Part shown: one piece after another, positions 10,577 through 27,565 of the stretch | Layout: each line of letters starts with the position of its first letter | Position numbering within the stretch: position 1 is the first letter of the stretch | Virus record (IMG/VR): IMGVR_UViG_3300029621_000179 | Reading direction: 5' to 3' (one strand) | Origin: a virus | Lineage: Duplodnaviria; Heunggongvirae; Uroviricota; Caudoviricetes | DNA length: 64,000 bases | Made by a program: the position numbers and the translations under genes | Notes under the pieces: generated by a model | The model's database searches: none | What the model was told of the DNA's origin: nothing | Seen by the model: the letters and a program-made list of their open reading frames with translations, nothing else

Positions 10577-11140
10577 ATGGGGAGAAAGAAAAAGAATGCC
10601 CGGTCAGCAGCACATGGACGAAAGATCCACGTTAATAAATACATCAATCAACGAGGGAAGACCAAGAAAAGGGCAGTAGTATCCTGTCAGCCGGCACCTA
10701 ATAGAGTGCCGATTCAGGAGATGCCGCTTACCAGATGGCCGGTACCAAAGATACCGAAGCAGTATGAGATCTGGTTTGCAGAACTGGGGAATCATTATGG
10801 TACCTCGGTGCAGAGCGGGAACCGCCCGGTGTTGGTTATCAGCAACGATATGGCAAACCGCAATTCTCCAATCATCACGGTAATCCCGATGAGTTCCAAG
10901 CTGAAGAAGCTGGAACTGCCGGTTCACATTCCGGTCACCGGGAGAGACTGCGAAATGCTCCGGGATGAGGGACTGGAAGAATCCATTCTGCTGGTGGAGC
11001 AGATCACGACCATTGACAAGATGGTCCTGTGTAACCGGCTCTGCCGTGTGACCTCGGCCAGGAAAAAGCAGGAGATCGAAGCTGCTGTTAAAAAGCAGTT
11101 TGCGATGCAGGCTTGTATGGGAAGGGAGGCGCAGGCATGA
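10577..11140 (+). CDS. MazF/PemK-family (mRNA interferase fold) protein with basic N-terminal extension
   Basis: RBS GGAGGTGA. The core PKQYEIWFAELGNHYGTSVQSGNRPVLVISNDMANRNSPIITVIPMSS matches the PemK/MazF signature. About 50 aa of Lys/Arg-rich sequence precede it. Confidence 0.6.
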   Translation: MGRKKKNARSAAHGRKIHVNKYINQRGKTKKRAVVSCQPAPNRVPIQEMPLTRWPVPKIPKQYEIWFAELGNHYGTSVQSGNRPVLVISNDMANRNSPIITVIPMSSKLKKLELPVHIPVTGRDCEMLRDEGLEESILLVEQITTIDKMVLCNRLCRVTSARKKQEIEAAVKKQFAMQACMGREAQA

Positions 11141-13566
11141 TGGACATCAAGAACATTCCGGGCAAGTTGAAAACGACCTGCAGCTTCTGTGTCTGGAAGT
11201 TTGAAAAGCGCAATGGCCAGAAGACCAAGATGCCATTTAACACGGCAACGGGGGAACGGGCGAGGATTAATGACCTGCGTACATTCTCAGATTTCAAGAA
11301 TACCCTTGTCACCTATGCGATGGGCGGTTATGACGGTATCGGTATTGCTGTTGGCAACGGAATCGGAGCTTTTGATATCGACCACTGTATCCGGGAGGAT
11401 GGTACGCTGAATGATACGGCGGATACCGTCCTTTCCATCTTTCCTACGGCTTACGTGGAAAAATCTCCGTCCGGCAAAGGACTGCGAGGTTTCTTCTGTG
11501 TGCCGGAAGACTACGTCTATGACAAGACGGTCTACTACATCAATAACCGCAGCAAGGGTCTGGAAGTGTATATGCCCGGTGCGACAAACCGCTTCGTCAC
11601 AGTGACGGGAGATGTTTACCGCACAGGTGAGATCCCGAACGATGAAACCGCAATGACGACACTGTTGGACACGCTGATGAAGCGAAACAAGCAGGTGCAG
11701 CAGACCCATTTCCAGCACCATTCGTATCTGGATGATGATGCTGTTATCGCACACGCCAACGAAGCCAGCAACTCGGAAAAGTTCAAAAAACTCTTTGCCG
11801 GTGACTGGGAGGACCTCTACGGCAGCCAGTCGGATGCGGATATGGCATTGCTGTCGATCCTGGCATTCTGGTGTGGCTGTGATGAGGAGCAGATGGACCG
11901 TATTTTCCGTACTTCTGGTCTGATGCGTGACAAGTGGGACAGAAAACAGGCTGGTTCGACCTATGGTGCGATCTCTATCCGTAACACGGTCAATACCTGT
12001 GCGGCTGTCTATATGCCGGTCAACGCACAGGATATTGTGGATGAGGAGTTTTCCAAGCTGGATGAAGATGACTATATCGAGTTCCAGCCGGATCTCACCA
12101 AGATCACGGTCACGCTGGAAGAAATGGCTCCGCACACAAATTCCCGGTATGGTAGAAATGAGATCGGCATGGGCAATATGTTTGCGGATTATTTCAAGCA
12201 GATCGCCCGGTACAACAGTGAGCGTAAAGGCTGGTATGTCTATGACGGATCTGTCTGGCGGCCGGACAAAGGCAATCTCAAGGTATCGGAACTGGCAAAG
12301 CTGCTGGCGGACAAGCTGTATGTGTTTGCCCTGACGATTACCGAAGAGGATGCCAGAAAGCGGTTCATCGACCGTGTCCGAAAGCTGCAGCTGCGTAAGA
12401 ACCGGGAAACGATGCTGAAAGATGCCATGTCCGTGTATCCGATCTCCATGCAGGCATTTGACAGGAACAAGTATTTCTTTAATTGCAAAAATGGAACGCT
12501 GGATATGCGGACACTGGAATTCAGGGAGCATCGGCCGGAGGATTATCTCACAATGGAATCCGGTATTACCTACGATCCGGATGCAGACTGTCCACGCTGG
12601 CACTCGTTTATCAAGGAGGTCATGTGTGGAGATGCAGATCTGGCAGACTTCCTTCAGCGTTCTTTGGGATACGCCCTGACAGGAGATACCTCGCAGGAGT
12701 GTATGTTTATCCTTTACGGTGCCACTTCCCGAAACGGCAAAGGCACTGCAATGGAAACCTTCCTGAAGATCATGGGCGACTACGGCAAAACCTCAAATCC
12801 GGATATGCTGGCAGCTAAATTCCGTGGTGGGAACACAGGCGGACCTTCGGAAGAAGTGGCTCGTCTGGTCGGCTCCAGATTTGTAAATATCTCTGAGCCG
12901 GAGAAGAAGATCACATTTAATGCAGCTCTCGTAAAAAGAATGACCGGCAACGATACCATCAATGCTCGATTCCTGAATGAGAACAGCTTTGATTTTGTGC
13001 CGGTGTTCAAGATTTTTATCAATACGAACTACCTGCCCAATGTCAATGATATGACCTTGTTCCAATCCGGCCGACTGAAGATCATCCCGTTCAACCGTCA
13101 TTTTGAAGAGGGAGAACAAGACCAGGGGCTGAAAGGACAGTTTGCGAAGCCGGAGAACCTGTCAGGTATTTTTAACTGGTGTCTGGAAGGGTATAAAAAG
13201 TTTTGCCAGCGCGGTTTGGAACTTCCGCAGGCGGTCACGAAAGCCACGGAAGATTACAAGGATGATTCTGATCGGATCGGGCAGTTCATTGAGGCGTGGC
13301 TTGAAAAAGAGGAAGGGTCGGAACTTCGGACAGCGGCAGCATACCAGCTGTACACAAAGTGGTGTGAGGAGAACGGGTATTCCTCAGAGAACCAGAAGAA
13401 CTTTAAAAATGCTATCGGTGTACATTTCAAAGTGGTCCGAAAGCGTCCCAAAGGCGGTGGCGGACAGACTACGCTGATCATGGACTGCAGGTTCAAGGAA
13501 GTGGAAGATGGAGCGGAAGACCTGACGGTACAGGATGCATATAAGCCAAAGGACAGTCTTTTGTGA
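11137..13566 (+). CDS. bifunctional primase-polymerase / SF3 (P4-type) helicase
   Basis: RBS GGGAGG; prim-pol motifs (GIGIAVGNG, FDIDHC), a PriCT-like segment (MALLSILAFWCGCDEEQMDRIF), and Walker A GATSRNGKGT of D5/P4-family helicases. Confidence 0.8.
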   Translation: MMDIKNIPGKLKTTCSFCVWKFEKRNGQKTKMPFNTATGERARINDLRTFSDFKNTLVTYAMGGYDGIGIAVGNGIGAFDIDHCIREDGTLNDTADTVLSIFPTAYVEKSPSGKGLRGFFCVPEDYVYDKTVYYINNRSKGLEVYMPGATNRFVTVTGDVYRTGEIPNDETAMTTLLDTLMKRNKQVQQTHFQHHSYLDDDAVIAHANEASNSEKFKKLFAGDWEDLYGSQSDADMALLSILAFWCGCDEEQMDRIFRTSGLMRDKWDRKQAGSTYGAISIRNTVNTCAAVYMPVNAQDIVDEEFSKLDEDDYIEFQPDLTKITVTLEEMAPHTNSRYGRNEIGMGNMFADYFKQIARYNSERKGWYVYDGSVWRPDKGNLKVSELAKLLADKLYVFALTITEEDARKRFIDRVRKLQLRKNRETMLKDAMSVYPISMQAFDRNKYFFNCKNGTLDMRTLEFREHRPEDYLTMESGITYDPDADCPRWHSFIKEVMCGDADLADFLQRSLGYALTGDTSQECMFILYGATSRNGKGTAMETFLKIMGDYGKTSNPDMLAAKFRGGNTGGPSEEVARLVGSRFVNISEPEKKITFNAALVKRMTGNDTINARFLNENSFDFVPVFKIFINTNYLPNVNDMTLFQSGRLKIIPFNRHFEEGEQDQGLKGQFAKPENLSGIFNWCLEGYKKFCQRGLELPQAVTKATEDYKDDSDRIGQFIEAWLEKEEGSELRTAAAYQLYTKWCEENGYSSENQKNFKNAIGVHFKVVRKRPKGGGGQTTLIMDCRFKEVEDGAEDLTVQDAYKPKDSLL

Positions 13567-13589
13567 TCCTTTTTCTGATTTTGGGTGCT

Positions 13590-13700
13590 TTGTAGCATGT
13601 AGCTGGTTTGTAGCCGAGATTTCATAACCTTTTTTATTATTACTTTCTTTTATAGCTTTCTTATATAAAATTCAGCTACATGGTTGCTACATGCTACATG
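13590..13700. repeat. origin-like element: AT-rich core flanked by inverted arms each carrying three GTAGC iterons
   Basis: Left arm TGTAGCATGTAGCTGGTTTGTAGC. Right arm is its reverse complement, CAGCTACATGGTTGCTACATGCTACA. A ~55 bp AT-rich spacer lies between them, immediately downstream of the primase-helicase gene. Confidence 0.4.
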
Positions 13701-13838
13701 AGTTGAAAAGAAGAAAGGAAATTAAGAGAATGAACGGAAACCATGAATAGAGACAGGGCAGGCAGTTTTTGTGGGAGCCTATTTGTGGGCAAGGGCAAAG
13801 GCAGCCTGCTTTGTGATACAGGAAAAAGAGGACAGAAC

Positions 13839-14906
13839 ATGAGTAAAATTATCACCTGTGAACAGGTCAGCAATGGCCATCCCGATAAGATTTGTGATCA
13901 GATTGCAGATGCCATTGTGACCGACATTCTCCAGCATGACAAGAACGCCCGTGTGGCAATCGAGTGTCTGCTGAAAAAGAGCCAGCTTTTTATTGCCGGT
14001 GAGGTCACCACCGATTACCGGCCAAACTACAATCAGATTGTCCATGATGTGTTTAACCGCATCGGTGCTGAAAAGCTGGGATGGAACCTGACCGAGCTTC
14101 TCCGCATCGGCATTCTGGTGGACAAGCAGTCCCCGGATATTGCACTGGGTGTGGATAAGGGCGGTGCCGGTGACCAGGGCATCATGTATGGCTACGCCAC
14201 CAACGAGACGGCAGAGCAGATGCCGATTCCCTACATGGTCGCCACCAAGTTCCTGCAACTGCTGAAGAACTATCCGTCTAAGATGTTCCGTGCAGATGCC
14301 AAGGCACAGGTCAGCTACGATTACGACACCGGCCGAATCACCACCTTCCTCTGCTCTGTGCAGCACAGCCCGGATGTGGAGGTCAGCGACTTCCGGCACA
14401 TCATCGAATCCATGATGGTGCTGGCCGCCTGCGAGTACGGTCTGGATGGTGACTTCACGAAGCTGGTCAATCCGACCGGTCGATTCGTGCTGGGCGGCAG
14501 CTACGCCGACTGTGGTGTGACTGGCCGGAAGCTGGCGTGCGACACCTATGGCGGCATCGGTCGTATGGGTGGTGGTGCTCTGAGCGGCAAAGATCCAACC
14601 AAGGTGGACCGCTCCGCTGCATACATGGCGAGGAAGATTGCCAAGGACATCGTGCAGGCGGGCTACGCAGACAAGTGCGAAGTCCAGCTGGCCTACGCCA
14701 TCGGCGTGGTACAGCCAGTGGGTGTGGCAGTGGAGTGCTTCGGTACGGAGCACCAGTCCCTTGACTTCATCGAAGCCTACGTCCATGACAGCTACGACCT
14801 GACCCCGCAGGGTATCATCAAGCGGCTGGGTCTGCTGGATGTAGACTACAACAAGGTCAGTGCTTACGGTCACTTCGGCAAGGCTGGCCTTCCGTGGGAG
14901 GACTGA
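13839..14906 (+). CDS. metK: S-adenosylmethionine synthetase (methionine adenosyltransferase)
   Basis: N-terminus GHPDKICDQIADAIV and GAGDQGIMYGYA are canonical MetK signatures; RBS AGAGGA; ~355 aa. Confidence 0.85.
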   Translation: MSKIITCEQVSNGHPDKICDQIADAIVTDILQHDKNARVAIECLLKKSQLFIAGEVTTDYRPNYNQIVHDVFNRIGAEKLGWNLTELLRIGILVDKQSPDIALGVDKGGAGDQGIMYGYATNETAEQMPIPYMVATKFLQLLKNYPSKMFRADAKAQVSYDYDTGRITTFLCSVQHSPDVEVSDFRHIIESMMVLAACEYGLDGDFTKLVNPTGRFVLGGSYADCGVTGRKLACDTYGGIGRMGGGALSGKDPTKVDRSAAYMARKIAKDIVQAGYADKCEVQLAYAIGVVQPVGVAVECFGTEHQSLDFIEAYVHDSYDLTPQGIIKRLGLLDVDYNKVSAYGHFGKAGLPWED

Positions 14907-14909
14907 CCC

Positions 14910-15269
14910 ATGCCGTACAGACCAAAGACACCATGCCATCATCCCGGCTGCCCGGAGCTGGTAGAACCCGGCCGGTTCTTCTGTGAGAAGCACCTGCCTC
15001 TCCACCCAGAAGCCACTCGGCCAGCAGCAAAGCGTGGATACAACAGACGGTGGCAGAAAGCCAGGAAGTCGTATCTCGAAGCACATCCACTCTGTGTGCA
15101 GTGTGCCAAGCAGGGTAAGTATGTCCGGGCAACGGTCGTGGATCACATCATTCCGCACCGTGGTGACCAGAACCTTTTCTGGGACCAAAATAATTGGCAG
15201 GCTCTCTGCAAGAACTGTCACGATAAGAAGACGCTGACCGAAGACATCAACCCGACCTACACCTACTGA
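14910..15269 (+). CDS. HNH endonuclease
   Basis: Paired CxxC motifs (CHHPGC, CVQCAKQG...CKNCH) with H-N-H residues (VDHIIPH...NWQALC). Confidence 0.75.
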   Translation: MPYRPKTPCHHPGCPELVEPGRFFCEKHLPLHPEATRPAAKRGYNRRWQKARKSYLEAHPLCVQCAKQGKYVRATVVDHIIPHRGDQNLFWDQNNWQALCKNCHDKKTLTEDINPTYTY

Positions 15270-15278
15270 CACCCCGCC

Positions 15279-15336
15279 GGGGGCCGGGGTCACTTCTCTA
15301 CGGTGAAGTCACACGGAGACCGGTGGCCCCTTTTCT
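15279..15336 (+). terminator. intrinsic terminator after HNH gene
   Basis: GC-rich stem GGGGGCCGG...CCGGTGGCCCC followed by TTTTCT. Confidence 0.5.
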
Positions 15337-15669
15337 GTGAAAAACCGCAAAATTGATAGGCCGGGGGTCAGAGGATTAACGGCGCAAAATGAAACAGGAA
15401 AATGTACAGGCATCGGAGCTTTCGTTCCGGTGCCATTCTTTTTCCCCGAAATGAACCAAAGTGTGTGAAACTTCTCGAAAACAGGGAGCTTTCGCACATT
15501 TTAGCTTGTTCCGGGAGGAGCGAGGGCGAGCGAGAATCGGCCGCCGCAACAACAATTCAACCGGGCGGGACGGGGCCGATTTCCACTTCGCCGCTTTTCG
15601 TATGAATTATGAGATTTTTCTAAGAAACCGCCGAAGAAACGGCGAAAAATGAGAGTGAGGTGAGGGCAG

Positions 15670-15969
15670 ATGGATGATTACACGGCTGAGATGATAAGGG
15701 ACATGGCTTTTTCGTTCTGCCCTCAGTGCGGTACAGCCATTGTGCCGAATCATAAAGGCAGACCGAGAAAGTTCTGCTCACCGGAATGCCGGTCAAGGTG
15801 GAACAACACCCACCCAAAGCCGGAAAACTGGAGAACAGTGCGGTCAAAGATCTGTCCGGTGTGCGGCAGGGAGTTTTCCTACCGGCATCAGTACGGATTG
15901 GAACGAAAATATTGCAGTCGGGCTTGTGCCAACCGGGGCAGGAAGAAGGAGGCGAACAGGAGTGAGTAA
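15670..15969 (+). CDS. zinc-ribbon protein (two CxxC...C(S)xxC repeats)
   Basis: RBS GAGGTGAGGG; FCPQCG...FCSPEC and ICPVCG...YCSRAC Cys pairs; basic C-terminus. Confidence 0.45.
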   Translation: MDDYTAEMIRDMAFSFCPQCGTAIVPNHKGRPRKFCSPECRSRWNNTHPKPENWRTVRSKICPVCGREFSYRHQYGLERKYCSRACANRGRKKEANRSE

Positions 15970-16189
15970 GAAGATTATCGGTGTGTATCCGATGTTCAAC
16001 ACCGGGGGTATCTGTGTACATGCGATTGACGATGCGGAAGATAAGGTTCTGGCATCCGTGAACGGGGAAAACCCGGAGTGGTGCGAGATGGCTGAACAGC
16101 CGCAGGAAGATGGAGATGAAATGGAGTCGGGCTTTTTGTTCGGCTCCTTTTTCGTGCCGTTTTCAGGGGTCATTCGCATGGGAATCTGA
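15961..16189 (+). CDS. small hypothetical protein (GTG start)
   Basis: AGGAGG 9 nt upstream of GTG; 76 aa; low support. Confidence 0.2.
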
Positions 16190-16205
16190 ATTAGGAGGAA
16201 CCTAC

Positions 16206-17477
16206 ATGAAAGCGACTGCTGAACTGAAGATGCTGCCGGTGTCCGTACTCAAGCCGGCTGCATACAATCCCCGGAAAAAGCTGAAGCCGGGGGATAAAGA
16301 GTACGAGAAAATCAAGAACTCCATTACGGAGTTCGGCTTCGCAGATCCTTTGGTGGTCAATGCCGACATGACGATTATCGGTGGTCACCAGAGACTGACA
16401 GTAGCGATGGAGCTGGGCTACACCGAAGTGCCTTGTGCGGTGGTGGACATCGACAAGACCAGGGAGAAGGCCCTGAACATCGCACTCAACAAGATCACGG
16501 GTGCATGGGATGATTCTCTGCTGGCTGATCTTTTGAAGGACATTGAGGATTCCAACTTCGACCTCGGTAAGACAGGCTTTGACCCGCCTGAGATCGAGAC
16601 GCTGTTCAACAAGGTCCACAGCAAAGAGGTCAAGGAAGATGACTTCGATGTGGAATCGGAGCTGAAGCAGCCGTGCTTCTCCAAAGAGGGCGACCTCTGG
16701 CATCTGGGTAAGCACATCGTTCTGTGCGGCGATTCCACCAAGCCAGAATGCTACGATACCCTGATGGACGGCACCAAGGCAAATCTGGTACTTTCCGATC
16801 CCCCTTATAACGTGGATGTGGAAGAAACGGCTGGCAAGATCCTGAACGACAACATGGGCGATTCGGAATTCTACCAGTTCCTGCTGGCAGCGTTCCAGCA
16901 GATGCACGGGCATCTGGCGGATGACGGCTCCATCTATATCTTCCATGCAGATACGGAAGGGCTGAACTTTAGAAAGGCATTCAAGGATGCAGGGTTCTAC
17001 CTGTCCGGGTGCTGTATCTGGAAGAAGAATGCTCTGGTGCTGGGACGCAGTCCTTACCAGTGGCAGCACGAGCCGTGTCTTTACGGCTGGAAGCAGAAGG
17101 GGAAACACCAGTGGTATTCCGACCGGAAGCAGACGACCATCTGGGAGTATGACCGGCCGAAGTCCAACAAGGACCATCCGACCATGAAGCCCATCGGTCT
17201 GATGAGCTATCCGATCCGAAATTCCACCATGACCAACGGCATCGTCCTCGATCCGTTCCTTGGCAGCGGTTCTACCCTGATCGCCTGCGAAGAAACCGAC
17301 CGTGTGTGCCGAGGCATTGAGCTGGACCCGAAGTTCGTGGATGTGATCGTGAAGCGTTATATCGAACACAGCGAGGGTCACTACGATGATGTGTATGTCA
17401 TCCGTGACAGTCAGAAGCTGAAGTTCGAGGAAGTGGCGACCTTCGAGCCGGAAAGGGAGGTCGCTGATGGAGAATAA
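16206..17477 (+). CDS. ParB-like nuclease domain fused to N6-adenine/N4-cytosine DNA methyltransferase
   Basis: RBS GGAGGA; ParB N-terminal box (LKPAAYNPRK, IIGGHQRL); DPPY motif (LVLSDPPYNV) and a C-terminal SAM-binding region. Confidence 0.8.
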   Translation: MKATAELKMLPVSVLKPAAYNPRKKLKPGDKEYEKIKNSITEFGFADPLVVNADMTIIGGHQRLTVAMELGYTEVPCAVVDIDKTREKALNIALNKITGAWDDSLLADLLKDIEDSNFDLGKTGFDPPEIETLFNKVHSKEVKEDDFDVESELKQPCFSKEGDLWHLGKHIVLCGDSTKPECYDTLMDGTKANLVLSDPPYNVDVEETAGKILNDNMGDSEFYQFLLAAFQQMHGHLADDGSIYIFHADTEGLNFRKAFKDAGFYLSGCCIWKKNALVLGRSPYQWQHEPCLYGWKQKGKHQWYSDRKQTTIWEYDRPKSNKDHPTMKPIGLMSYPIRNSTMTNGIVLDPFLGSGSTLIACEETDRVCRGIELDPKFVDVIVKRYIEHSEGHYDDVYVIRDSQKLKFEEVATFEPEREVADGE

Positions 17478-19596
17478 ACAGCTGACCCTCGGCAGCCTCT
17501 TTGATGGCTCCGGGGGTTTTCCATTGGGCGGGCTTTTGACCGGGCAGATCACTCCGGTGTGGAGCAGTGAGATCGAGCCGTTTGCCATCCGGGTCACGAC
17601 CAAGCGTCTGCCGCAGGTGAAGCATTATGGAGATGTGTCTGCTATCAGCGGTGCAGACCTACCTCCTGTAGACATCATCACTTTTGGCAGTCCCTGTCAG
17701 GATATGTCCATCGCGGGTAAGCGGGACGGTCTGGATGGTTCACGGTCCAGCCTGTTTTACGAAGCAATCCGAATCGTGAAGGAAATGAGGTGTAAGACCA
17801 ATGGAGAAAAACCAAGATTTATCGTGTGGGAGAATGTGCCAGGGGCCTTCTCCTCAAACAAAGGACAGGACTTCAAAGCAGTCCTCGAAGCCGTCATCGG
17901 TGTTAAAGAACCGTCCGCCTCGGTGCCTGCGCCTGAGAAGAAAGGATGGCCCGACGCTGATTACTACGTGGGAGGCGGATGGAGCGTCGCGTATCGAGTT
18001 TTTGATGCACAATGGTGGGGCGTTCCCCAAAGAAGAAAACGTATCTACCTTGTCGCAGATTTTGCAGACCAGAGTGCCCCAAAGGTATTATTTGAGTCCG
18101 AAGGCGTGTCTCGGTATTCTGCGGAGGGCTTCCGTGCGTGGCAAAGAGCTGCCGCCGGTGCTGAAAGCAGCACTGGAGAGACAGGCTGCAGTGGAGCAGG
18201 AGGACGGCTCTGTCTGAACGATCAGGGCGGAGAGAGGATGGATGTGACGGAAGAGGTGACAGCCACCCTCCGTGCAGAGGCACATCATCCGCCGTGTGTT
18301 ATGGAAGCCGCTGGTTTCTGTACCGAGCATTCCGCAAATGCCAGAAGCATTGGATACGAAGAGGAACGGTCACCGACCCTCCGGGCTGGCGTCGTGCCGG
18401 CCGCCATCGCACTGGAAAATCACCCTGCGGACAGCCGGGTGAAGATTTCCGAGGACGGTAAGGTACAGACACTGACAAGCCGGTGTGGTACGGGTGGCGG
18501 TAATGTCCCGATGGTCATGGACGCTGTTGAAAATTCAGTGGAAAGCCCGGTGAAAGAAGTTGAAAACTCTCCGGCGGTCACATTGAAGATCCGTTCCGGG
18601 TGTGAAGGCGGTGGCAAGGGCGCTATCTGGCAGGAAGAAAAGTCGGCTACCCTCGGCTGCAACAACGACCAGACACTGTTCGTTCCGAAATGCTACGGTG
18701 TCTGCTCTAAAGCCAGCCACTCCATGATGTCCGATAATCCGCAAAGCGGCTTCTATGAAGCGGAGACCTCCCGGACACTAGACCGCAGTGGTGGAGATCC
18801 GACCTGCAATCAGGGCGGTATCTGCGTGGTAGAGCCGGTCGCCTTTACCCAGAACCAGAGGGATGAAGTCCGGGATCTGGGAGAGAAGTCAGCGGCACTT
18901 GCAGCAGAGCCGGGGATGAAGCAGCAGACCTTCGTCCTGCAGGGTAATATGATCGGCCGCAAGGATGAGAACGGTCCGCAGGGGGATGGCGTCAATGAGG
19001 ATGTCTGCTTTACACTGGATGCCACTGACCGCCATGCAGTCTGCGCACCGGAGGATGTGTATGCCATGACCACCGGCTCCTATATGCAGGTGGCAAAAGA
19101 AGTCGCACCGACTCTGATGGCACGGGACTACAAAGACCCGACCACCATCGCACCGGTGCCGCATCTGAACGAGGGTGTCATGGGAACGGTGGCAACCGGG
19201 GCGCATCCAAGCGGCTTCAACGGGCAGGATGCTTTCAATGACCGTCTGGTCATCGATAACCCGGAAGCGCAGCCGGCACCTGTGACCTATACCGTCCGCC
19301 GCTTGACACCGACCGAGTGTGCCAGACTGCAGGGCTTCCCGGACTGGTGGTGCCGGAACCTTGGAACAGAAGATCCGACCGAAGAAGAGCTGGCGTTCTG
19401 GGCAGATGTGTTTGAAACGCACCGCAAAATCGTGACCCACGCCAAGAAGCCGAAAACGGAGAAACAGATCCGGAAATGGCTGGCTGACCCGTATACGGAT
19501 TCGGCAGAGTACCGTATCTGGGGCAACGGCATATGCTTAGCCAACGCATTTTTTGTTCTGGCCGGCATCGCATGGTGTGCAGGTCTGGAAGAATAA
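17467..19596 (+). CDS. DNA (cytosine-5)-methyltransferase with ~400 aa variable region (probably multispecific)
   Basis: Motif I LFDGSGGF, motif IV GSPCQDMSIAGKR, motif VI ENVPG, and late motifs TPTECARLQGFPD. A very long target-recognition insert lies between motifs VIII and IX. Confidence 0.85.
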   Translation: MENKQLTLGSLFDGSGGFPLGGLLTGQITPVWSSEIEPFAIRVTTKRLPQVKHYGDVSAISGADLPPVDIITFGSPCQDMSIAGKRDGLDGSRSSLFYEAIRIVKEMRCKTNGEKPRFIVWENVPGAFSSNKGQDFKAVLEAVIGVKEPSASVPAPEKKGWPDADYYVGGGWSVAYRVFDAQWWGVPQRRKRIYLVADFADQSAPKVLFESEGVSRYSAEGFRAWQRAAAGAESSTGETGCSGAGGRLCLNDQGGERMDVTEEVTATLRAEAHHPPCVMEAAGFCTEHSANARSIGYEEERSPTLRAGVVPAAIALENHPADSRVKISEDGKVQTLTSRCGTGGGNVPMVMDAVENSVESPVKEVENSPAVTLKIRSGCEGGGKGAIWQEEKSATLGCNNDQTLFVPKCYGVCSKASHSMMSDNPQSGFYEAETSRTLDRSGGDPTCNQGGICVVEPVAFTQNQRDEVRDLGEKSAALAAEPGMKQQTFVLQGNMIGRKDENGPQGDGVNEDVCFTLDATDRHAVCAPEDVYAMTTGSYMQVAKEVAPTLMARDYKDPTTIAPVPHLNEGVMGTVATGAHPSGFNGQDAFNDRLVIDNPEAQPAPVTYTVRRLTPTECARLQGFPDWWCRNLGTEDPTEEELAFWADVFETHRKIVTHAKKPKTEKQIRKWLADPYTDSAEYRIWGNGICLANAFFVLAGIAWCAGLEE

Positions 19597-19728
19597 ACTG
19601 GCCCGCTATATTACTAGGTAGAAAGCGACCTGGTGATATGGTGGGCTTACATATTGGTCCTATTTACACAACAGATTTCGCAGTCCCTTGTGTAATTAGT
19701 CGAACATGAAGAATATCGGGAAATGGCC

Positions 19729-19759
19729 TTGATATTTGACCGGTTCAGAGTGATATATG
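19729..19759 (+). promoter_or_regulatory. variant copy of repeated phage promoter (GGCCTTGATA-N-TGaTATATG)
   Basis: Shares the GGCCTTGATA...AGAGTGATATAT core with the copy at 22957; the leader contains CTACCGAAAAG. Confidence 0.4.
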
Positions 19760-19820
19760 TGCTACCGAAAAGAACATCGGGATGCACAAAAACAGAAGAA
19801 AACGAAAGGGGCAATGAATT

Positions 19821-20912
19821 ATGTTGAAATTTGAATTGAACATAGCAGACCGTAAGACACTTGCAAATCGCATGGAGGAGCTGACGGGTATCCATCCTTA
19901 CTACACCAGAGCACCGCTGTATGCTTATGACATCGGCAACTACACCATCGACCGGGACGGCAATCTTCTGGTCGAGCCGGAGAATGCAGATGCCGAGCTG
20001 CTGACGACCCTGCTGAATGAGGGACTGATCCGCGGCGGCGAGAGCATTGAGAGCACGGATGACCAGCCGGAAAACACAGAGCCGACCGAGAATTTGACAG
20101 CGGAGCCTGTGACCGAAGAGGAGCCGGATGATACGGCAGAGGATGGTGCAACAGAGGATGAGCCGGATGCAGAGGAATCGGAAAGCGAAGAGCAGCCGGA
20201 AGCAGAAGACCAGCCGGAAGAAGTGCCGCTGGATCTGGAACTTGCTTTCCCCACCAGCCAGCATAACGGCGTGAGCCTTCGCAATCTGGTCAACCTCATC
20301 TACAGCCGGGGCCGACTCATCAGCAAGGCAACGGGCGGGCACTTCCATGTGGAAACCGACCTGGTCGAAACACTGCGGGATGACAGCTGTACTTACACGG
20401 TGGCAAACTTCATCGAGGCGCTTAAGAGTTACGAAGCACAGTGCGGAACTGCGATGGAAGGTCTGGTGATCACAGAAGAAAAGGTTTCCTTCACAGGATT
20501 CCCGACGGCTTCCGACTATGATCATCTGACGGCTTTCGGTCACCTTGCCATTCTGATGAACCAGCAGGCGATCAGCCAGAAGCGCATCCAGGCAAAGGAT
20601 GTCAACGATGAGAATGAGAAGTATGCACTCCGCACATGGCTCCTGCGGCTTGGGATGAACGGTCCGGATTTCAAAGAGACCCGCAAGATCCTCATGGAGA
20701 ATCTTTCCGGCCATGCGGCTTTCCGGACGGATGAGGAAGCACAGAAGTTCCTTGCAAGGGAAAAGGCAAAACGGGATGCCCTGAAAGCCGCGAAACAGGC
20801 GGCACAGAACAGCAATCCTGCCACTGGGGAAACGGCCGCACAGGATGCAGCCCAGCCGACACAGCCCGACTGTGGGGTGGATACGGCGCAGATGCTGGAG
20901 GCGGGAGCGTAA
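19821..20912 (+). CDS. amidoligase-like paralogue (divergent N-terminus, acidic linker; C-terminal half homologous to 21145..22083)
   Basis: The C-terminal half aligns with the downstream amidoligase (HFHVE vs VHIHIG; EKYALRTWLLRLGMNG vs DKYAMRCWMLRLGFIG). The N-terminus is different and there is a poly-acidic stretch. Confidence 0.45.
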   Translation: MLKFELNIADRKTLANRMEELTGIHPYYTRAPLYAYDIGNYTIDRDGNLLVEPENADAELLTTLLNEGLIRGGESIESTDDQPENTEPTENLTAEPVTEEEPDDTAEDGATEDEPDAEESESEEQPEAEDQPEEVPLDLELAFPTSQHNGVSLRNLVNLIYSRGRLISKATGGHFHVETDLVETLRDDSCTYTVANFIEALKSYEAQCGTAMEGLVITEEKVSFTGFPTASDYDHLTAFGHLAILMNQQAISQKRIQAKDVNDENEKYALRTWLLRLGMNGPDFKETRKILMENLSGHAAFRTDEEAQKFLAREKAKRDALKAAKQAAQNSNPATGETAAQDAAQPTQPDCGVDTAQMLEAGA

Positions 20913-21068
20913 GCTCCCAAGCCCCCAATGGGGGCCGGAAAATAAGTGAGACCCTCTTCCATTGTACCGATATTAACTCTGAAAATGTACATTATCAAGC
21001 AGATAAACCGCAGAAATGTACACGATCATTCTGCCTCATATTTGTCGAATATATGTTCTTTTATATCC

Positions 21069-21097
21069 TTGCTATTATCCGCACCTGACGGTAATAT
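21069..21097 (+). promoter_or_regulatory. repeated phage promoter copy (TTGCTA-17-TAATAT) + conserved leader
   Basis: Same hexamers, spacing and GCACATACCGAAAGGG leader as the copies at 26895, 27566, 28186, 28779 and 29262. Confidence 0.5.
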
Positions 21098-21144
21098 GCA
21101 CATACCGAAAGGGAAAACAAGGAAAAAACAAAGGAGAACATACC

Positions 21145-22083
21145 ATGAACGATAAAACAAGAGAGCAGATTGAAGCCATGAAAAACCAGACCATCGGAGT
21201 TGAGATCGAGATGAACAACATCACCAGAGAAAAAGCGGCAAGAAAGGTTGCCGAGTACTTCGGAACCAGAGCATGGAACGCCGCCAGCGAGTACGGATAT
21301 TACAGCTGGGCTTGCAAGGACGGACAGGGCAGGGTTTGGAAATTCCAGAGGGATGTGAGCATCTACGGACCGGACGCAGAAAAATGCGAACTGGTCACCC
21401 CGATCCTCACCTACGACGACATCGAGTCCCTGCAGGAAATCATCCGGCTGCTCCGCAAGGCAGGCGCAAAGAGCAGTCCAAGCCGCGGATGCGGGGTCCA
21501 CATCCACATCGGCAAAGGCGACCACACCGCAAAGACCATCCGCAACCTTGTGAACATCATGGCGGCACACGAACAGCAGATCGGCAGAGCCATCCGGATC
21601 GACGCAGGGCGTACCGGACAATATTGCCGGGTAGTCGACCACCGCTTCCTCGACCGGCTGAACCGCGAGAAGCCGACCACCATGCGCAAGCTGGAAGACA
21701 TCTGGTACGAAGGCAACGGTTCCAGCTGGGAAAACCGGAATGCCCACTACAATTCAAGCCGGTACCATATGCTGAACCTCCATGCCACCTTTACAAAAGG
21801 AACCATTGAATTCCGCCTTTTCCAATTCGCAGACCCAGCGGACGGAAAGCGTAACGGACTGCATGCCGGTGAGATGAAAGCCTACATCCAGCTTTGCCTC
21901 GCAATGAGCCAGCTTGCCAAGATGGTCAGAACGGCAAGCCCGAAGCCCCAGCAGACCGACAACGACAAATACGCAATGCGGTGCTGGATGCTCCGGCTGG
22001 GATTCATTGGTGAGGAGTTCGCAACGGCAAGGGAAATCCTTCTGCGGAATATGGAGGGCAACGCAGCATGGCGCAACAAATAA
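21145..22083 (+). CDS. putative amidoligase (Amidoligase_2 / glutamine-synthetase-like fold)
   Basis: N-terminal Glu-rich strands (IGVEIEMNN, ELVTPIL) and GCGVHIHIG resemble the Pfam Amidoligase_2 family; it neighbours AIG2/GGCT genes as that family does in Firmicutes. Confidence 0.55.
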   Translation: MNDKTREQIEAMKNQTIGVEIEMNNITREKAARKVAEYFGTRAWNAASEYGYYSWACKDGQGRVWKFQRDVSIYGPDAEKCELVTPILTYDDIESLQEIIRLLRKAGAKSSPSRGCGVHIHIGKGDHTAKTIRNLVNIMAAHEQQIGRAIRIDAGRTGQYCRVVDHRFLDRLNREKPTTMRKLEDIWYEGNGSSWENRNAHYNSSRYHMLNLHATFTKGTIEFRLFQFADPADGKRNGLHAGEMKAYIQLCLAMSQLAKMVRTASPKPQQTDNDKYAMRCWMLRLGFIGEEFATAREILLRNMEGNAAWRNK

Positions 22084-22151: not shown

Positions 22152-22388
22152 ATGAAAAGCACGTTAAAAAATGAAAGCACACCGGGCGGCAGGACCTTTA
22201 AGGTGACCATCACCGAGACCTACCAGAGAACGGTGACCATTTATGAATCCGAAATGAAAGAGCCGACCGTGGAGGAAGCCCAGCGAGTGGCAGAGGACTG
22301 GTGGCAGGACAGCCAGATTGAGCTTGGGACAGATGATTTTCAGGGCGTGGAATTCACTGGCAGGGAGGACGGTGAGGCGGATGTTTGA
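22152..22388 (+). CDS. small hypothetical acidic protein
   Basis: 78 aa ORF with RBS GGAGG; it overlaps the next start by 8 nt. Confidence 0.35.
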   Translation: MKSTLKNESTPGGRTFKVTITETYQRTVTIYESEMKEPTVEEAQRVAEDWWQDSQIELGTDDFQGVEFTGREDGEADV

Positions 22389-22902
22389 ATTGATCAGCCG
22401 AAGCCCATCCAGATATTATCTTGCCTACGGAAGCAACCTCGACATGGAGCGGATGGGAAAGAGATGCCCATATGCTGTAGTGGTCGGCACGACCGAGATC
22501 ATGGGCTACCGGCTCCTGTTCAAAAAGAGCAAGACCGGCTGCTATGCCACCATTGAACAGGACGCCAATGAAAGCGTACCGGCAGTGGTCTGGAAGCTCT
22601 CGGAATATGATGAGCTCCTGCTGGACCGGTACGAGGGCTGCCCAAGATACTACTACAAGAAACAGTTCCAGCTTCCGGTCTGGAACCTGAACGGGAACCG
22701 CATGAAAAAGGCAAAGCCCTGCATCGCTTATGTGATGCACGAGGACCGGCGGCTTGGCTGCCCGGATGCCGAGTATTTTGAACTGCTGCGCGGCGGATAC
22801 AGCGACTGGGAATTTCCGCTGGACACACTGAAGCGTGGACTGGCAGCTAGTATCGGAAGGGCGGAAGCCATCCGGTATCTGAAGAAGCAGCAGATGATGT
22901 AA
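22381..22902 (+). CDS. AIG2/gamma-glutamyl cyclotransferase (GGCT)-like protein
   Basis: YLAYGSNLDMERM is the hallmark YxAYGSNL motif of the GGCT/AIG2 fold; ~173 aa. Confidence 0.7.
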   Translation: MFELISRSPSRYYLAYGSNLDMERMGKRCPYAVVVGTTEIMGYRLLFKKSKTGCYATIEQDANESVPAVVWKLSEYDELLLDRYEGCPRYYYKKQFQLPVWNLNGNRMKKAKPCIAYVMHEDRRLGCPDAEYFELLRGGYSDWEFPLDTLKRGLAASIGRAEAIRYLKKQQMM

Positions 22903-22956
22903 GAGTACACGATCAAAAGCAAAAAACATTGTGCAGTATATGATGCTCATCGGCCT

Positions 22957-22986
22957 TGATAAATCAGGGCAGAAGAGTGATATATA
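22957..22986 (+). promoter_or_regulatory. variant repeated promoter copy (TTGATA-18-TGaTATATA, extended -10)
   Basis: GGCCTTGATAAATCAGGGCAGAAGAGTGATATATA followed by CCATACCG; it lies upstream of the second GGCT-like gene. Confidence 0.45.
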
Positions 22987-23032
22987 CCATACCGCCAGAC
23001 AAGAGCGGAGAAAACCGAAGGGAGAGATTCAA

Positions 23033-23512
23033 ATGAAGAATAAGAAATATTACATCGCCTACGGCAGCAACCTGTCGGTGGAGCAGATGGCATACCGGTG
23101 TCCGGATGCAAAAATTGCAGGGCAGGCGGTGCTGGCAGGCTGGGAGCTTTTGTTCCGGGGCTGCGCCACCATCGCACCGAACCCGAAGAAGAACACGCCG
23201 GTTCTGGTGTGGGAGATTTCGGAAAGGAACGAAGGAAACCTCGACCTCTATGAGGGCTACCCGAATTACTACCGCAAGGAAGACCTGAACATCGAACTGC
23301 TCCGGGAAGGGGCAGAACCGGAGATGGTGACCGCAATGGTATATATCATGGAGAACGACTTCGGACGCCGCGCACCGAGCCGGTATTACTACAAAGTCCT
23401 GCATGACGGCTACAAGGCATTCCACTTCCCGATGCACATCCTCGAAGGTGCGCTGAAGGAATGCATGGATAAGGATGCCGCCCAGCGGATGATCGAGGAG
23501 GTGCAGGCATGA
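23033..23512 (+). CDS. AIG2/GGCT-like protein (second paralogue)
   Basis: N-terminus KKYYIAYGSNLSVEQM; the same fold motif as the first paralogue. Confidence 0.7.
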   Translation: MKNKKYYIAYGSNLSVEQMAYRCPDAKIAGQAVLAGWELLFRGCATIAPNPKKNTPVLVWEISERNEGNLDLYEGYPNYYRKEDLNIELLREGAEPEMVTAMVYIMENDFGRRAPSRYYYKVLHDGYKAFHFPMHILEGALKECMDKDAAQRMIEEVQA

Positions 23513-23976: not shown

Positions 23977-24344
23977 AAGTTCTTCTGATCAAACCGATGG
24001 AGCATCCGCAGGTGGTTGACATTGAAAACTCCCTGAAAGAGTTCTACCGCATCCTCGACTGCGACTGCATCACAGCCACCTACCCGTGGGAAGAACGCGC
24101 CGCCCTGGTCACCGATGACAACGGGCTGTTCACCGAGAAGCCATTCAGCCGATACATTCCGGAGCTGGAGCAGCCCATCAAGGGAAACTTCTTCATCTGC
24201 GGATTGGGCGAGGAAGATTTCGCAGAGCTGCCACAGGACCTGATTCAGAAATTCAGGGAACGCTTCTGGGTGCCGGAGGCATTCGTCAGCATGTTCGGGC
24301 AGATGGCAGTCATCCAGATGGATGACGGAACGAAGCCGGAATAA
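23973..24344 (+). CDS. DUF3846-like protein
   Basis: MKVLLIKPMEHPQVVDIENSLKEF... resembles the DUF3846 N-terminus; RBS AAAGGGGG. Confidence 0.4.
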   Translation: MKVLLIKPMEHPQVVDIENSLKEFYRILDCDCITATYPWEERAALVTDDNGLFTEKPFSRYIPELEQPIKGNFFICGLGEEDFAELPQDLIQKFRERFWVPEAFVSMFGQMAVIQMDDGTKPE

Positions 24345-24416
24345 GATACCACAATCAGAAAAAATACCCTCTCGGCCAGAAAAGACCGGGAGGGCTTAGT
24401 TTAACAGGAGGAGCCT

Positions 24417-24608
24417 ATGGGACACAGAAAGATGCCGGCTTATGGCGAGAGGGAACACGGCGGCAGATACATTCTGGATGAATACGAATGGTCAAGAAAC
24501 CACTGTAAGGCGGTGACCATCCGCAGATGGAAAAGGGACCTAAAAAAGAAAGCCAGAGCGCATAACCGCAGGGTGATGCATCAGGCAATGCAGGGCGAAG
24601 CCGATTAG
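24417..24608 (+). CDS. small basic hypothetical protein
   Basis: 63 aa ORF; RBS AGGAGGAG. Confidence 0.3.
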   Translation: MGHRKMPAYGEREHGGRYILDEYEWSRNHCKAVTIRRWKRDLKKKARAHNRRVMHQAMQGEAD

Positions 24609-24614
24609 ACGGAA

Positions 24615-24650
24615 AATGGGGGCCTCAAAAGAATGGGAACCCCCTTCCAG
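24615..24650. terminator. candidate bidirectional terminator between convergent genes
   Basis: GGGGG...CCCCC stem with T-runs on both strands (CUUCCAGUUU on plus; AUUUUCC on minus). Confidence 0.3.
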
Positions 24651-24661
24651 TTTACTGTATA

Positions 24662-25062
24662 TTACCTCTGGAAAGCAACGATAGCAAGGAGAACCGCCGC
24701 CATAATGTACACAAACATCTGGCAGCGGTTTTGTGTATCATACCAAACCAAAACGGGGGATACGAGGCAGAACCCCAGCTTCTGCTGGGGGAGCCTTTTG
24801 GGATTCCTTAGAAGAAATCCCAAAAGGCTCATGCCGACCTCGTTCAGTCGTTCCTCCATGCTGTGGTAGTGCCAATCTTCTTCCTCTTCTTCGTCCTCTT
24901 CCTCAAGCTCTTCTGGGAAGGGGTCGTGCCGCCATCCGGCTTTCTGGTATTCTTCTTCCCGGATGTCGTTGCGGTCGTAAATATCCAGCTCGTATTCTTC
25001 TTCAAGCTCTGCGATGCGGTTTTCGATTGCGGTTTCAACTTCTGTAATGGTCTTTTTCATGG
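24662..25062 (-). CDS. acidic protein with C-terminal hydrophobic (membrane-anchor-like) segment
   Basis: RBS GGAGGA on the minus strand; MKKTITEVETAIENRIAELEEEYE..., then a poly-Glu run, then a C-terminal hydrophobic stretch; the only minus-strand gene in this region. Confidence 0.4.
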
Positions 25063-25209
25063 TTTTTGTCCTCCGTTTTTGGTTTGGTTTTCTTTGCTTT
25101 CGTTGTGTGTATAATGCCGCAGAAACACATATATAGCAAGTCAATCAGGGGTTATATATGTACCAAACATGAGGGGCAAAGATCGTTGATAATATGACGT
25201 TTTATGGCC

Positions 25210-25238
25210 TTGCTATCACAGGGCGGTGACGGTAATAT
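25210..25238 (+). promoter_or_regulatory. repeated phage promoter copy separated from its gene by the IS insertion
   Basis: TTGCTA-17-TAATAT plus an ACAGCTAC leader (as in copy 26895); the IS left end begins 41 bp downstream. Confidence 0.5.
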
Positions 25239-25292
25239 ACAGCTACAAAAAGCAAAGGAGTGGTGTTAGAATATAAATAGTACAAAATAAAC

Positions 25293-25643
25293 ATGACCAT
25301 TTTCAATAAATATTATATGATAGTCATAGATCAAGAGAGGAGAATGGTTATGGCAAGAGGTACAAGGTATTCACAAGAGTTTAAGGAAGATGCAGTAAGA
25401 TATCGTTTGGAGCATCCGGAGGTTGCACTTCGTAAGTGTGCTGAAAATCTTGGAATTAGTGAATCTGCACTGAAGAGTTGGATGAAATCAGCAAAGGAAC
25501 ATGAAGGAACTGTTCCGACCCGTGGTTCAGGCAATTACGCAAGTGATGAGGCCAAAGAAATCGCACGTTTGCAGCGAGAGTTACGCGATACGAAGGATGC
25601 ACTTGAAGTATTAAAAAAAGCAATCGGTATTCTGGGAAAATGA
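25293..25643 (+). CDS. IS3-family transposase OrfA (HTH)
   Basis: RBS GAGAGGAG; helix-turn-helix N-terminus (LRKCAENLGISESALKSW) and a leucine-zipper-like C-terminus; slippery A_AAA_AAA at 25613-25619. Confidence 0.8.
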   Translation: MTIFNKYYMIVIDQERRMVMARGTRYSQEFKEDAVRYRLEHPEVALRKCAENLGISESALKSWMKSAKEHEGTVPTRGSGNYASDEAKEIARLQRELRDTKDALEVLKKAIGILGK

Positions 25644-26563: not shown

Positions 26564-26637
26564 CAATTACATAAAAAAGGAAAATTGGTTGCATTTAATT
26601 TGTACTTTTTCTTGACATAGGACCAGAGGACAGCAAA

Positions 26638-26814
26638 ATGGCTGATTGGAGAACATGGAAAAAAGGGAGAAAGACAACATGGCACTGGAACGAATTCGAT
26701 GGAAGCGGAAGACGGGAAGGAATCATCACCGAGGTTCATGAAGACCATGCGATTATGGAAGCAGACGGCATGCACCTCTGGATCGACGATGACACGGCAG
26801 AGATGTTCAGCTAA
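26638..26814 (+). CDS. small Trp-rich hypothetical protein (58 aa)
   Basis: ATG after AGAGGA, just downstream of the IS right end; probably the gene originally driven by the promoter at 25210. Confidence 0.3.
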   Translation: MADWRTWKKGRKTTWHWNEFDGSGRREGIITEVHEDHAIMEADGMHLWIDDDTAEMFS

Positions 26815-26894
26815 GAAAACGGGGAGGGAAACCTCCCCGGATAAACACATAAATCCTCCAGATCAGGGGGCAGATGATCGTGTACTTTAGCCGC

Positions 26895-26923
26895 TTGATA
26901 GTATCCGGCAGTGACGGTAATAT
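26895..26923 (+). promoter_or_regulatory. repeated phage promoter copy (TTGATA-17-TAATAT)
   Basis: Preceded by the conserved ATCGTGTACTTTAGCCGC. Confidence 0.55.
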
Positions 26924-26953
26924 ACAGCTACCAAAACGAAAGGGGCAAAGAAC

Positions 26954-27160: not shown

Positions 27161-27175
27161 GAGGAGAACAAAAAC

Positions 27176-27436: not shown

Positions 27437-27457
27437 AGGCAAGACCGACAGGCGCAA

Positions 27458-27483
27458 GGGGCTGGAAATGACCAGCCTTTTGC
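27458..27483 (+). terminator. intrinsic terminator
   Basis: GGCTGG-aaatga-CCAGCC followed by TTTTG. Confidence 0.45.
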
Positions 27484-27565
27484 TCGTGTCTGTCTTCCGA
27501 AAGCTGGCATGAAAAGCACATAAATATGACAATTACAGGGTCAAATGATCGTGTAGTTTAGCCGC

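Follow-up and report, generated by a model that had tools for sequence, protein, structure and literature searches.

The stretch of DNA analysed here, 64,000 nucleotides (nt) of the IMG/VR record IMGVR_UViG_3300029621_000179 (hereafter the window), carries on its plus strand, at 13839-19596, a module of phage genes encoding an S-adenosylmethionine (SAM) synthetase (MetK), an HNH endonuclease, a ParB-fused DPPY methyltransferase and a C5-cytosine methyltransferase of 709 amino acids (aa). A first-pass annotation of this DNA had described these four genes, and all of them are present on the plus strand with exactly the limits then given. The module is a conserved block of DNA-modification and late-accessory genes in a temperate siphovirus-type prophage of Lachnospiraceae. 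With regard to its function, the reading favoured here, held with slightly better than even confidence, is that the two orphan methyltransferases would methylate the progeny DNA against restriction, that MetK, free of S-box control, would boost the supply of the methyl donor and that the HNH endonuclease would serve packaging. In this arrangement MetK appears to be a helper of the methyltransferases and not a requirement for them.

Several lines of evidence point to an intact MetK. Its start ATG is preceded by the ribosome-binding site AAAAGAGGA, and the two sequence stretches that had been quoted for its identification, GHPDKICDQIADAIV and GAGDQGIMYGYA, are both present in the protein. All three S-AdoMet synthetase Pfam domains (PF00438, PF02772 and PF02773) score above their cut-offs, with E values from 1e-25 to 1e-55, the NCBIfam equivalog model for metK, TIGR01034, gives 394.1 bits for a cut-off of 309.4, and the protein aligns end to end with MetK chains in the PDB (E 2e-92). 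The first-pass annotation had named the catalytic residues as the check to be made on this gene; in an alignment to E. coli MetK all 15 of the 15 catalytic or ligand residues considered are kept (H14, D16, K17, E42, E55, Q98, D118, K165, F230, D238, R244, K245, K265, K269 and D271 in E. coli numbering), their roles being established MetK biochemistry. The same alignment shows the GAGDQG and GGGAxSGKD motifs to be conserved. Moreover, pairwise ratios of non-synonymous to synonymous substitution (dN/dS, omega) against relatives range from 0.06 to 0.13, which indicates strong purifying selection. The gene is intact, and its product is predicted to synthesise SAM as a short-type methionine adenosyltransferase (EC 2.5.1.6).

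The phage enzyme is shorter than E. coli MetK, as it is devoid of residues 111-115, 154-157 and 177-179 (counted from Met1) and of the C-terminal 14 residues. Apart from that of 111-115, these deletions were found in 15 of 16 short forms and in 1 of 77 long forms, and the short forms constitute one clade with shared deletions in a neighbour-joining tree. Cellular MetK proteins of Bacillota and other phyla belong to the same three-domain fold family and have the same catalytic residues, with 42-49% identity to the phage protein. In contigs from one genome per species, the short form was present at eight loci (345-356 aa, identity of at least 53%) and the long form at 72 (368-476 aa, identity of at most 49%), with a clean gap between the two. 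Neighbours homologous to the module, namely the HNH endonuclease, the ParB methyltransferase or an amidoligase, accompany five of the eight short-form loci and none of the 72 long-form loci. The notion that short MetK is phage-specific was rejected as an absolute, since the short form of Oribacterium parvum is a riboswitch-controlled chromosomal gene. In this species (strain ACB1, L092 9787-11056) a phage-type MetK of 352 aa, 58% identical to that of the window, is found beside trkH/trkA, with a SAM-I riboswitch immediately upstream. Two origins are conceivable: the phages acquired their gene from a lineage of this kind, or the host gene of O. parvum was displaced by the phage one. In another Clostridia genome (L095) a short MetK is located inside a polysaccharide gene cluster. 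A plasmid-borne module was also rejected, because all 189 plasmid MetK matches have less than 48% identity and those listed, of about 1,080-1,150 nt, are of the long form, none of them being of the short phage type.

The control of metK appears to differ between phage and cellular copies. Of 13 cellular metK loci scanned with Rfam, 8 have a SAM-I (S-box) riboswitch about 50-330 nt ahead of the gene, and it was absent upstream of all eight phage-context copies examined, namely those of the window, of a Clostridium fessum prophage, of three further genome loci and of three phage records (L088, L090, L093, L094, L001, L082 and L085, besides the window). No SAM riboswitch or other known RNA reached the Rfam gathering threshold in the window, and none was found in 13400-16300 at E<=1. 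The absence in the phage copies is informative because cellular metK genes were scanned as controls, and it is suggestive only, because 5 of the 13 cellular loci are also without a detectable riboswitch. It suggests that the phage metK lies outside S-box SAM feedback, which would be consistent with raising SAM above the host set-point. The DNA that separates the primase gene from metK is AT-rich, with an inverted repeat (GTAGCATGTAGC / GCTACATGCTAC) that flanks an A+T-rich core, and a promoter scan found a promoter-like site at 13703-13731; the region could serve as operator, origin or promoter.

The two methyltransferases belong to different classes. The first of them combines a ParB N-terminal domain (PF02195, 35 bits) with a methyltransferase domain (PF01555, 99 bits), both above their cut-offs, and matches phrog_498 (E 1e-186) and the MTase_II model of PADLOC (436 aa). 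In this protein SDPPYN precedes DPFLGSGST, so that motif IV comes before FxGxG in the beta-class order, and its omega values are between 0.02 and 0.26. Among solved structures, the catalytic domain is closest to 5HEK (E 9e-13), an adenine methyltransferase deposited as DpnA, and the enzyme is probably an N6-adenine methyltransferase, a specificity favoured by both the DPPY motif and this nearest solved relative. Fusions of the ParB fold to N6_N4 methyltransferases are enriched in phages and prophages (PMC12704722). The C5 methyltransferase gene, which shares its first 11 nt with the ParB methyltransferase gene, encodes a match to PF00145 (E 2.8e-41) with its motifs in canonical order: motif I (FDGSGG) at residue 12, IV (PCQ) at 76, VI (ENV) at 122, VIII (QRRKR) at 188, IX (RRLTPTE) at 611 and X (GNG) at 686. 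Its best PADLOC match is the orphan-methyltransferase model PDLC03715 (719 aa profile, E 1e-272). Searches with PADLOC and Pfam revealed no cognate restriction enzyme and no defence model on the module genes in 13839-22083, where the sole nuclease is the packaging-type HNH endonuclease, and no match to the three minus-strand open reading frames (ORFs) further downstream. Both methyltransferases are therefore orphan, that is, devoid of a restriction partner.

The setting of the module is a siphovirus-type phage genome, with a DUF2800 nuclease, a family A DNA polymerase and a D5-type primase (11113-13566) on the replication side and, according to Pfam, TerS, TerL, a portal protein, a ClpP-type protease, an HK97-fold capsid protein and a tape measure protein of 1,990 aa among the structural and packaging genes. 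A plasmid or conjugative element was ruled out by this full siphovirus structural module. The closest genome copy (L088), with proteins that are 94-100% identical across the module, was found in Clostridium fessum SNUG30386, inside a scaffold of 1.09 Mb, and the element is therefore a prophage of a gut Lachnospiraceae species. The phage is related to those of Candidatus (Ca.) Heliusvirales and to Streptococcus phages of the Phi1207.3/Javan type. All genes of the module have the same orientation and are located between the replication and packaging modules, and all of them are under purifying selection.

The arrangement has been retained widely. Among IMG/VR relatives, 76 loci had enough flanking sequence for comparison and 59 of them had at least 7.5 kilobases (kb) downstream; these loci are close relatives, so that their counts are not independent. 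The HNH gene was found within 1.5 kb of MetK in 75 of the 76 loci, being immediately adjacent in 65, and both methyltransferases were present in 59 of the 59 loci with the longer flank. The same gene order is also seen in Streptococcus phages, in Evtepia phages labelled Ca. Heliusvirales and in the Erysipelothrix phage phi1605, and the adjacency of MetK, HNH and methyltransferase genes is no chance. The relatives in IMG/VR amount to 401 confirmed stretches, and clustering of the MetK protein at 90% places 5,635 sequences in a single cluster. In GenBank, MetK is matched by 139 phage records, 90 from Streptococcus; many of the 139 are annotated as SAM synthetase, and a few are host DNA or fragments. 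A third methyltransferase of the N6_N4 family, with 259 aa and a DIPY motif (L005 14109-14888), lies between the ParB and C5 enzymes in 42 of the 59 loci and is absent from the window. Additionally, the Faecalibacterium phage FP_Brigit (L083 9009-10448), which has a different replication module, carries a longer MetK followed within about 2 kb by a fusion of Dam-like and GNAT-like domains, and a protein with a ParB N-terminal domain just before TerS; it is a second lineage with MetK near DNA-modification genes.

The HNH endonuclease, which the first-pass annotation had listed beside the methyltransferases, is by its relationships not part of a modification or restriction set. The protein is a member of phrog_144, with a second match to the TerS-fused family phrog_4581, and its only solved relative is the HNH endonuclease of phage GVE2 (5H0M, E 2.6e-13), to which residues 1-110 align in two stretches and with which it has an N-terminal MPxxPxxPC motif in common. 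The GVE2 enzyme is reported to belong to the machinery that packages phage DNA (PMC5304195). The HNH gene starts 3 nt past the metK stop codon, on the same strand as TerS and 14.4 kb upstream of it, compared with about 3 kb in the Streptococcus relatives; the gap is wider in the window because cargo has accumulated in between, consisting of amidoligase-like genes, two gamma-glutamyl cyclotransferase-like (GGCT) genes, a DUF4314 gene, an IS3-type transposase gene and three minus-strand ORFs. Given the likeness to the GVE2 enzyme and the Terminase_4 TerS, TerL, portal, Clp protease and HK97 capsid genes that follow downstream, the most economical reading is that the HNH endonuclease would work with packaging and not with restriction.

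Between motifs VIII and IX the C5 methyltransferase has a variable region of about 360 residues, compared with about 90 in M.HhaI, which is made up of around ten units, or cassettes, of 33-50 aa. Most of these units have a TL-type motif, with AL in unit H and none in unit K. The target-recognition domains of multispecific Bacillus-phage enzymes, reportedly described by Lauster in 1989 and by Trautner in 1996, comprise about 40-50 aa and share a TL dipeptide. A self-BLAST of the variable region revealed no internal repeats, and a cassette-by-cassette Smith-Waterman comparison against shuffled sequences was needed, in which 9 of 91 pairs had z>3; the most similar included H/H2 (z = 12.5), C/C2 (z = 8.6) and A/J (z = 6.8). 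The 45 distinct C5 variants from related loci range from 708 to 821 aa and differ by the presence or absence of whole units, the remainder being nearly identical. The variant of 821 aa has up to about 13 cassettes, and at least six cassette types have been individually gained or lost, namely K of the window and N0, C2, E2, G2 and H2, which occur only in relatives. The omega values of the variable region (0.03-0.16) indicate purifying selection.

Related units are found in other phages as well. Streptococcus phage Javan422 has A-, C2-, F- and J-like units between motifs VIII and IX of a C5 enzyme of 475 aa, the C5 enzyme of Faecalibacterium phage FP_Toutatis has a D-like unit at the same position, and at least 80% of the long variable region is matched in 18 phage records, most of which are NatCom Heliusvirales genomes. 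The annotation of FP_Toutatis (L169, about 1223-2640 and beyond) splits this C5 enzyme into two coding sequences, which can be read through only with a frame change. Behind motif X, and in frame with it, lies a motif I-like LFDGIGG, suggesting either circular permutation of the enzyme or the immediate start of a further methyltransferase gene. An AlphaFold2 model of the window enzyme had a mean predicted local distance difference test (pLDDT) score of 28.6; its alignment consisted of 11 near-identical homologues, as the search returned only sequences with 81-99% identity. The pattern is the one expected of tandem, exchangeable target-recognition domains, for which the cassettes are candidates, and the enzyme probably recognises several targets through its approximately ten cassettes, some of which may be inactive pseudo-domains. 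A further proposal, which is tentative and thought somewhat doubtful, holds that the enzyme would be unusually multispecific, with 10-13 cassettes shuffled between near-identical gut phages so that each variant would impose a different broad methylation pattern, and that riboswitch-free MetK would meet this heavy load within one lytic cycle.

Under the favoured reading, the two orphan methyltransferases would be expressed with the late genes during lytic growth and would methylate the progeny DNA before packaging, and DNA methylated in this manner would survive restriction in the next host. The phage MetK would make SAM from host methionine and ATP and, being outside S-box control, would raise the supply of the methyl donor when demand peaks. 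The HNH endonuclease would act with TerS and TerL in the cutting and packaging of the genome, apart from methylation. Orphan and multi-domain methyltransferases of phages have been discussed as anti-restriction functions (PMC12707154). The first-pass annotation had proposed self-sufficient hypermethylation of the phage genome as anti-restriction, and part of this proposal stands, given the intact MetK under purifying selection, the synteny and the absence of a restriction partner; the term self-sufficient is overstated, as MetK is dispensable, and the idea had already been published. A literature search found no papers in which SAM levels or phage DNA methylation were tested with and without a phage metK.

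Several observations weigh against this interpretation. At least 10 of the 14 host-named Heliusvirales records with the long C5 methyltransferase have no MetK match, and MetK appears dispensable because these relatives carry the same long enzyme without it; the 14 records comprise seven from Ruminococcus, two from Acutalibacteraceae, two from Oscillospiraceae and one from each of three other taxa, and the count derives from organism tallies in which at most four are MetK-positive. Across Heliusvirales, MetK is present in 59% of genomes, compared with 67% for C5 methyltransferases (PMC11283538). Furthermore, deletion of a homologous prophage metK changed the aggregation and biofilm of the host, which is indicative of expression in lysogeny and effects on the host (PMC8223999). 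Short MetK is also found outside phages, beside trkAH in O. parvum and in the polysaccharide cluster of L095, and the lack of a riboswitch at the gathering threshold in 5 of 13 cellular loci shows that its absence is not unique to phages. Finally, the multispecificity of the C5 enzyme is read from its sequence, the AlphaFold model being unusable.

The main rival explanation, which is considered unlikely, sees MetK as a lysogenic-conversion or auxiliary metabolic gene that alters the SAM-dependent physiology of the host (polyamines, quorum signals, envelope or biofilm), the adjacency to methyltransferases being the legacy of a cargo hot spot. Deletion and complementation of the homologous prophage metK in Streptococcus agalactiae did alter chaining, aggregation and the glycocalyx, yet that study, the sole genetic one of a phage metK, encountered secondary mutations and incomplete complementation, and its phenotypes are not methylation data (PMC8223999). 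The AT-rich upstream region and promoter-like site that metK has of its own would fit a separately expressed host-directed gene, as would the many relatives with the same methyltransferases and no MetK, the short MetK genes in cellular settings and the variable cargo (third methyltransferase, amidoligases, insertion sequence (IS) element) that fills the stretch from HNH to TerS. Such an origin is harder to reconcile with a metK stop codon 3 nt from the HNH start, on the strand of the late genes, in an arrangement kept across distant phages, and with FP_Brigit, in which a different replication module is again accompanied by MetK near a DNA-methylase-like gene. It is distinctly improbable that the methyltransferases instead serve the life cycle of the phage itself (a packaging mark, the timing of replication, as for P1 Dmt at pac sites, or transcription), with the ParB domain targeting phage sites and MetK in support. 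Their genes do lie between the packaging-type HNH gene and TerS, the ParB fold acts elsewhere as a site-specific DNA clamp (its phage-enriched fusions being those of PMC12704722), and a review raises, as possible, a role in regulating replication cycles for many of the orphan methyltransferases of phages, noting that P1 packaging requires Dam methylation (PMC12707154). However, exchangeable cassettes that differ between near-identical phages are indicative of diversifying pressure from varied restriction systems and not of a fixed internal signal, and the addition of a third methyltransferase in relatives points the same way.

Very improbable is a counter-defence role, in which MetK would restore SAM after its depletion by a host system or by the SAM lyase of a rival phage, or would replace an inhibited host MetK. 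The first-pass annotation had similarly suggested buffering against defences that deplete or sense SAM, and nothing was found in support. There are precedents in concept only: two reports describe the T3 SAM lyase as cleaving SAM and inhibiting host MetK (PMC8406200; bioRxiv 10.1101/2023.02.27.530186), and a third describes phage pathways that rebuild NAD+, which illustrate the principle for another cofactor (PMC13464706). The divergence of the phage MetK, which forms a clade with its own deletions and no C-terminal tail, could be accommodated by such a role. Conversely, no SAM-depleting defence was documented in the literature found, PADLOC detected no defence-related neighbours, and the constant partners of MetK are consumers of SAM, the methyltransferases.

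Table 1. Features of the module and of its surroundings in the window, with positions, strand where assigned, and the basis of each assignment or a remark.
Feature	Position	Strand	Basis or remark
AT-rich intergenic region, primase gene to metK	13567-13838	+	Sequence, promoter scan, Rfam
Short-type S-adenosylmethionine synthetase (MetK), 355 aa	13839-14906	+	Pfam, TIGR01034, PDB match, phrog_1569
Packaging-type HNH endonuclease, 119 aa	14910-15269	+	PF01844; phrog_144; phrog_4581; 5H0M
Conserved non-coding region, 400 nt	15270-15669	+	Conservation, terminator scan, pairing analysis
Zinc-ribbon protein, 99 aa, two CxxC...CxxxC units	15670-15969	+	Weak treble-clef/zinc-ribbon Pfam matches; phrog_2308, phrog_1271
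Small acidic ORF, about 75 aa from GTG (65 aa from ATG 15992)	15962-16189	+	Sequence reading; homologue in L005
ParB N-terminal domain + beta-class DPPY methyltransferase, 423 aa	16206-17477	+	PF02195 + PF01555; phrog_498
C5-cytosine methyltransferase, 709 aa	17467-19596	+	PF00145; motifs aligned to M.HhaI; PADLOC PDLC03715
C5 variable region, residues ~245-605, between motifs VIII and IX	18199-19281	+	TL motif list, variant comparison
Amidoligase-like gene	19821-20912		Directly after C5 methyltransferase
Amidoligase_2 gene	21145-22083		
Two GGCT genes	22318-22902, 22931-23512		
IS3-family transposase	25640-26563		rve domain
Three ORFs	26807-28876	-	No Pfam or PADLOC match
TerS (Terminase_4)	29699-30397	+	Pfam; presumed HNH partner
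TerL	30397-32022	+	Pfam; presumed HNH partner

Three features between the HNH and ParB methyltransferase genes had been missed in the first reading: a non-coding region, a zinc-ribbon gene and a small acidic ORF. The non-coding region is conserved well above synonymous sites and contains three hairpins: a GC-rich one after the HNH stop codon, one at 15409-15434 that resembles a terminator and has a T-run, and a long one at 15445-15515. Over 35 distinct sequences, 98% of the cells in these hairpins are paired, compared with 30-55% in slid controls, and four pairs have double (compensatory) changes. No Rfam family matched this region in the scan of 13400-16300 at E<=1. It may be a leader, a regulatory or a terminator-switch element of the methyltransferase operon, or a structure of the packaging site (cos region). 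The zinc-ribbon gene is present in 58 of the 59 loci, with omega values of 0.02-0.18 and a Streptococcus phage homologue that is 41% identical, and it is the conserved upstream partner of the ParB methyltransferase. A second zinc-ribbon protein of 187 aa (L005 12058-12621) is encoded in 38 of the 59 loci and not in the window. The small acidic ORF has a homologue in the related locus L005 (12608-12832), in the same position directly upstream of the ParB methyltransferase gene.

Upstream of the primase gene, and overlapping its start, lies a gene at 10577-11140 for a protein with a MazF/PemK-type toxin domain and an N-terminal extension of about 60 aa; a MazF-like gene is found upstream of the primase gene in most relatives. 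A few IMG/VR contigs stop just upstream of metK, and a cos site was considered on account of these contig ends and rejected: they coincide with a mosaic boundary in the primase gene, which is why they are no evidence of a physical end of the genome. Downstream of the module, the amidoligase and GGCT genes travel with the methyltransferases in most related loci, including that of an Evtepia phage. A stretch of low GC content (46%) at 24000-28900 is inserted between these cargo genes and TerS.

The finding is correct and ordinary, since the same arrangement and the same reading have been published for a widespread phage lineage. Both the gene order and the provision of an own methyl donor are already known, and the window is one more copy. 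Three points deserve to be carried forward: the polymorphism of the C5 cassettes, the lack of a riboswitch before the phage metK and the structured, conserved non-coding region that precedes the methyltransferase genes. The cassette array is the more promising lead, as nature already provides alleles of 708-821 aa with single-cassette differences, which constitute a ready-made experiment; these alleles could serve to map recognition modules to targets and help to explain the host range of a very common group of human gut phages. The metK gene would matter if a cofactor synthase supplied by the phage limits the completeness of progeny DNA methylation, which would amount to a virus paying for its own epigenetic camouflage.

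Among known systems, the closest are the Streptococcus prophages Phi1207.3, Phi-m46.1, Javan and phi-Ssu, which have the same succession of primase/helicase, MetK (about 345-353 aa), HNH endonuclease of 120 aa, ParB and N6_N4 methyltransferase, C5 methyltransferase, TerS, TerL, portal and Clp protease genes. In Phi1207.3 of Streptococcus pyogenes, orf29 encodes a MetK of 353 aa, orf30 the HNH endonuclease, orf32 the ParB and methylase protein and orf33 the C5 methylase, followed by TerS and TerL, and its authors had already proposed MetK as a supply of the methyl donor (PMC4260502). Identity to the window is 55-58% for MetK and about 70% for the ParB methyltransferase. These phages differ from that of the window, the host of which is a gut Clostridium/Lachnospiraceae, in their shorter C5 enzyme (388-475 aa versus 709 aa, the window enzyme having more cassettes) and in lacking the roughly 10 kb of extra cargo (amidoligases, GGCT genes and IS element) before TerS. 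GenBank records labelled Ca. Heliusvirales share MazF, MetK, HNH, zinc-ribbon, ParB methyltransferase, C5 methyltransferase, amidoligase and GGCT genes with the window, which is likened to them by the shared module and the long C5 enzyme, whereas the lineage itself is defined by nine marker genes and TerL homology. In these gut phages, described by de Jonge et al. (2024), the share of genomes with a C5 methyltransferase is 67% and that with MetK 58.9% (PMC11283538). Their report treats such genes as auxiliary metabolic ones, and the cassette array, the missing riboswitch and the role of the HNH endonuclease lie outside its analysis.

The HNH endonuclease resembles HK97 gp74 and the GVE2 enzyme in its size of about 120 aa, its MPxxPxxPC zinc motif and its HNH core, and in its occurrence in a phage with a Terminase_4 TerS, TerL, portal, ClpP-type protease and HK97-fold capsid; unlike theirs, its gene does not adjoin TerS. 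Phage T3 offers a parallel in that its SAM lyase (SAMase) acts on the host SAM pool in a restriction/modification context, but T3, according to the reports cited above, destroys SAM and blocks the host MetK, whereas the phage of the window would make SAM for its own methyltransferases. With regard to the C5 enzyme, the nearest analogues are those of the Bacillus phages SPR, phi3T, rho11s and H2 and M.PhiBssHII, which are likewise orphan C5 enzymes of temperate phages with a variable region between motifs VIII and IX, and whose tandem target-recognition domains confer protection against many restriction systems (PMC12707154, PMC8936443). They have no detectable sequence match to the window enzyme beyond the core, and the array of the window, with about ten cassettes, is larger. 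If its multispecificity is real, the array would represent a larger, population-level version of the multispecific methyltransferase strategy of Bacillus phages, in a highly prevalent lineage of human gut phages.

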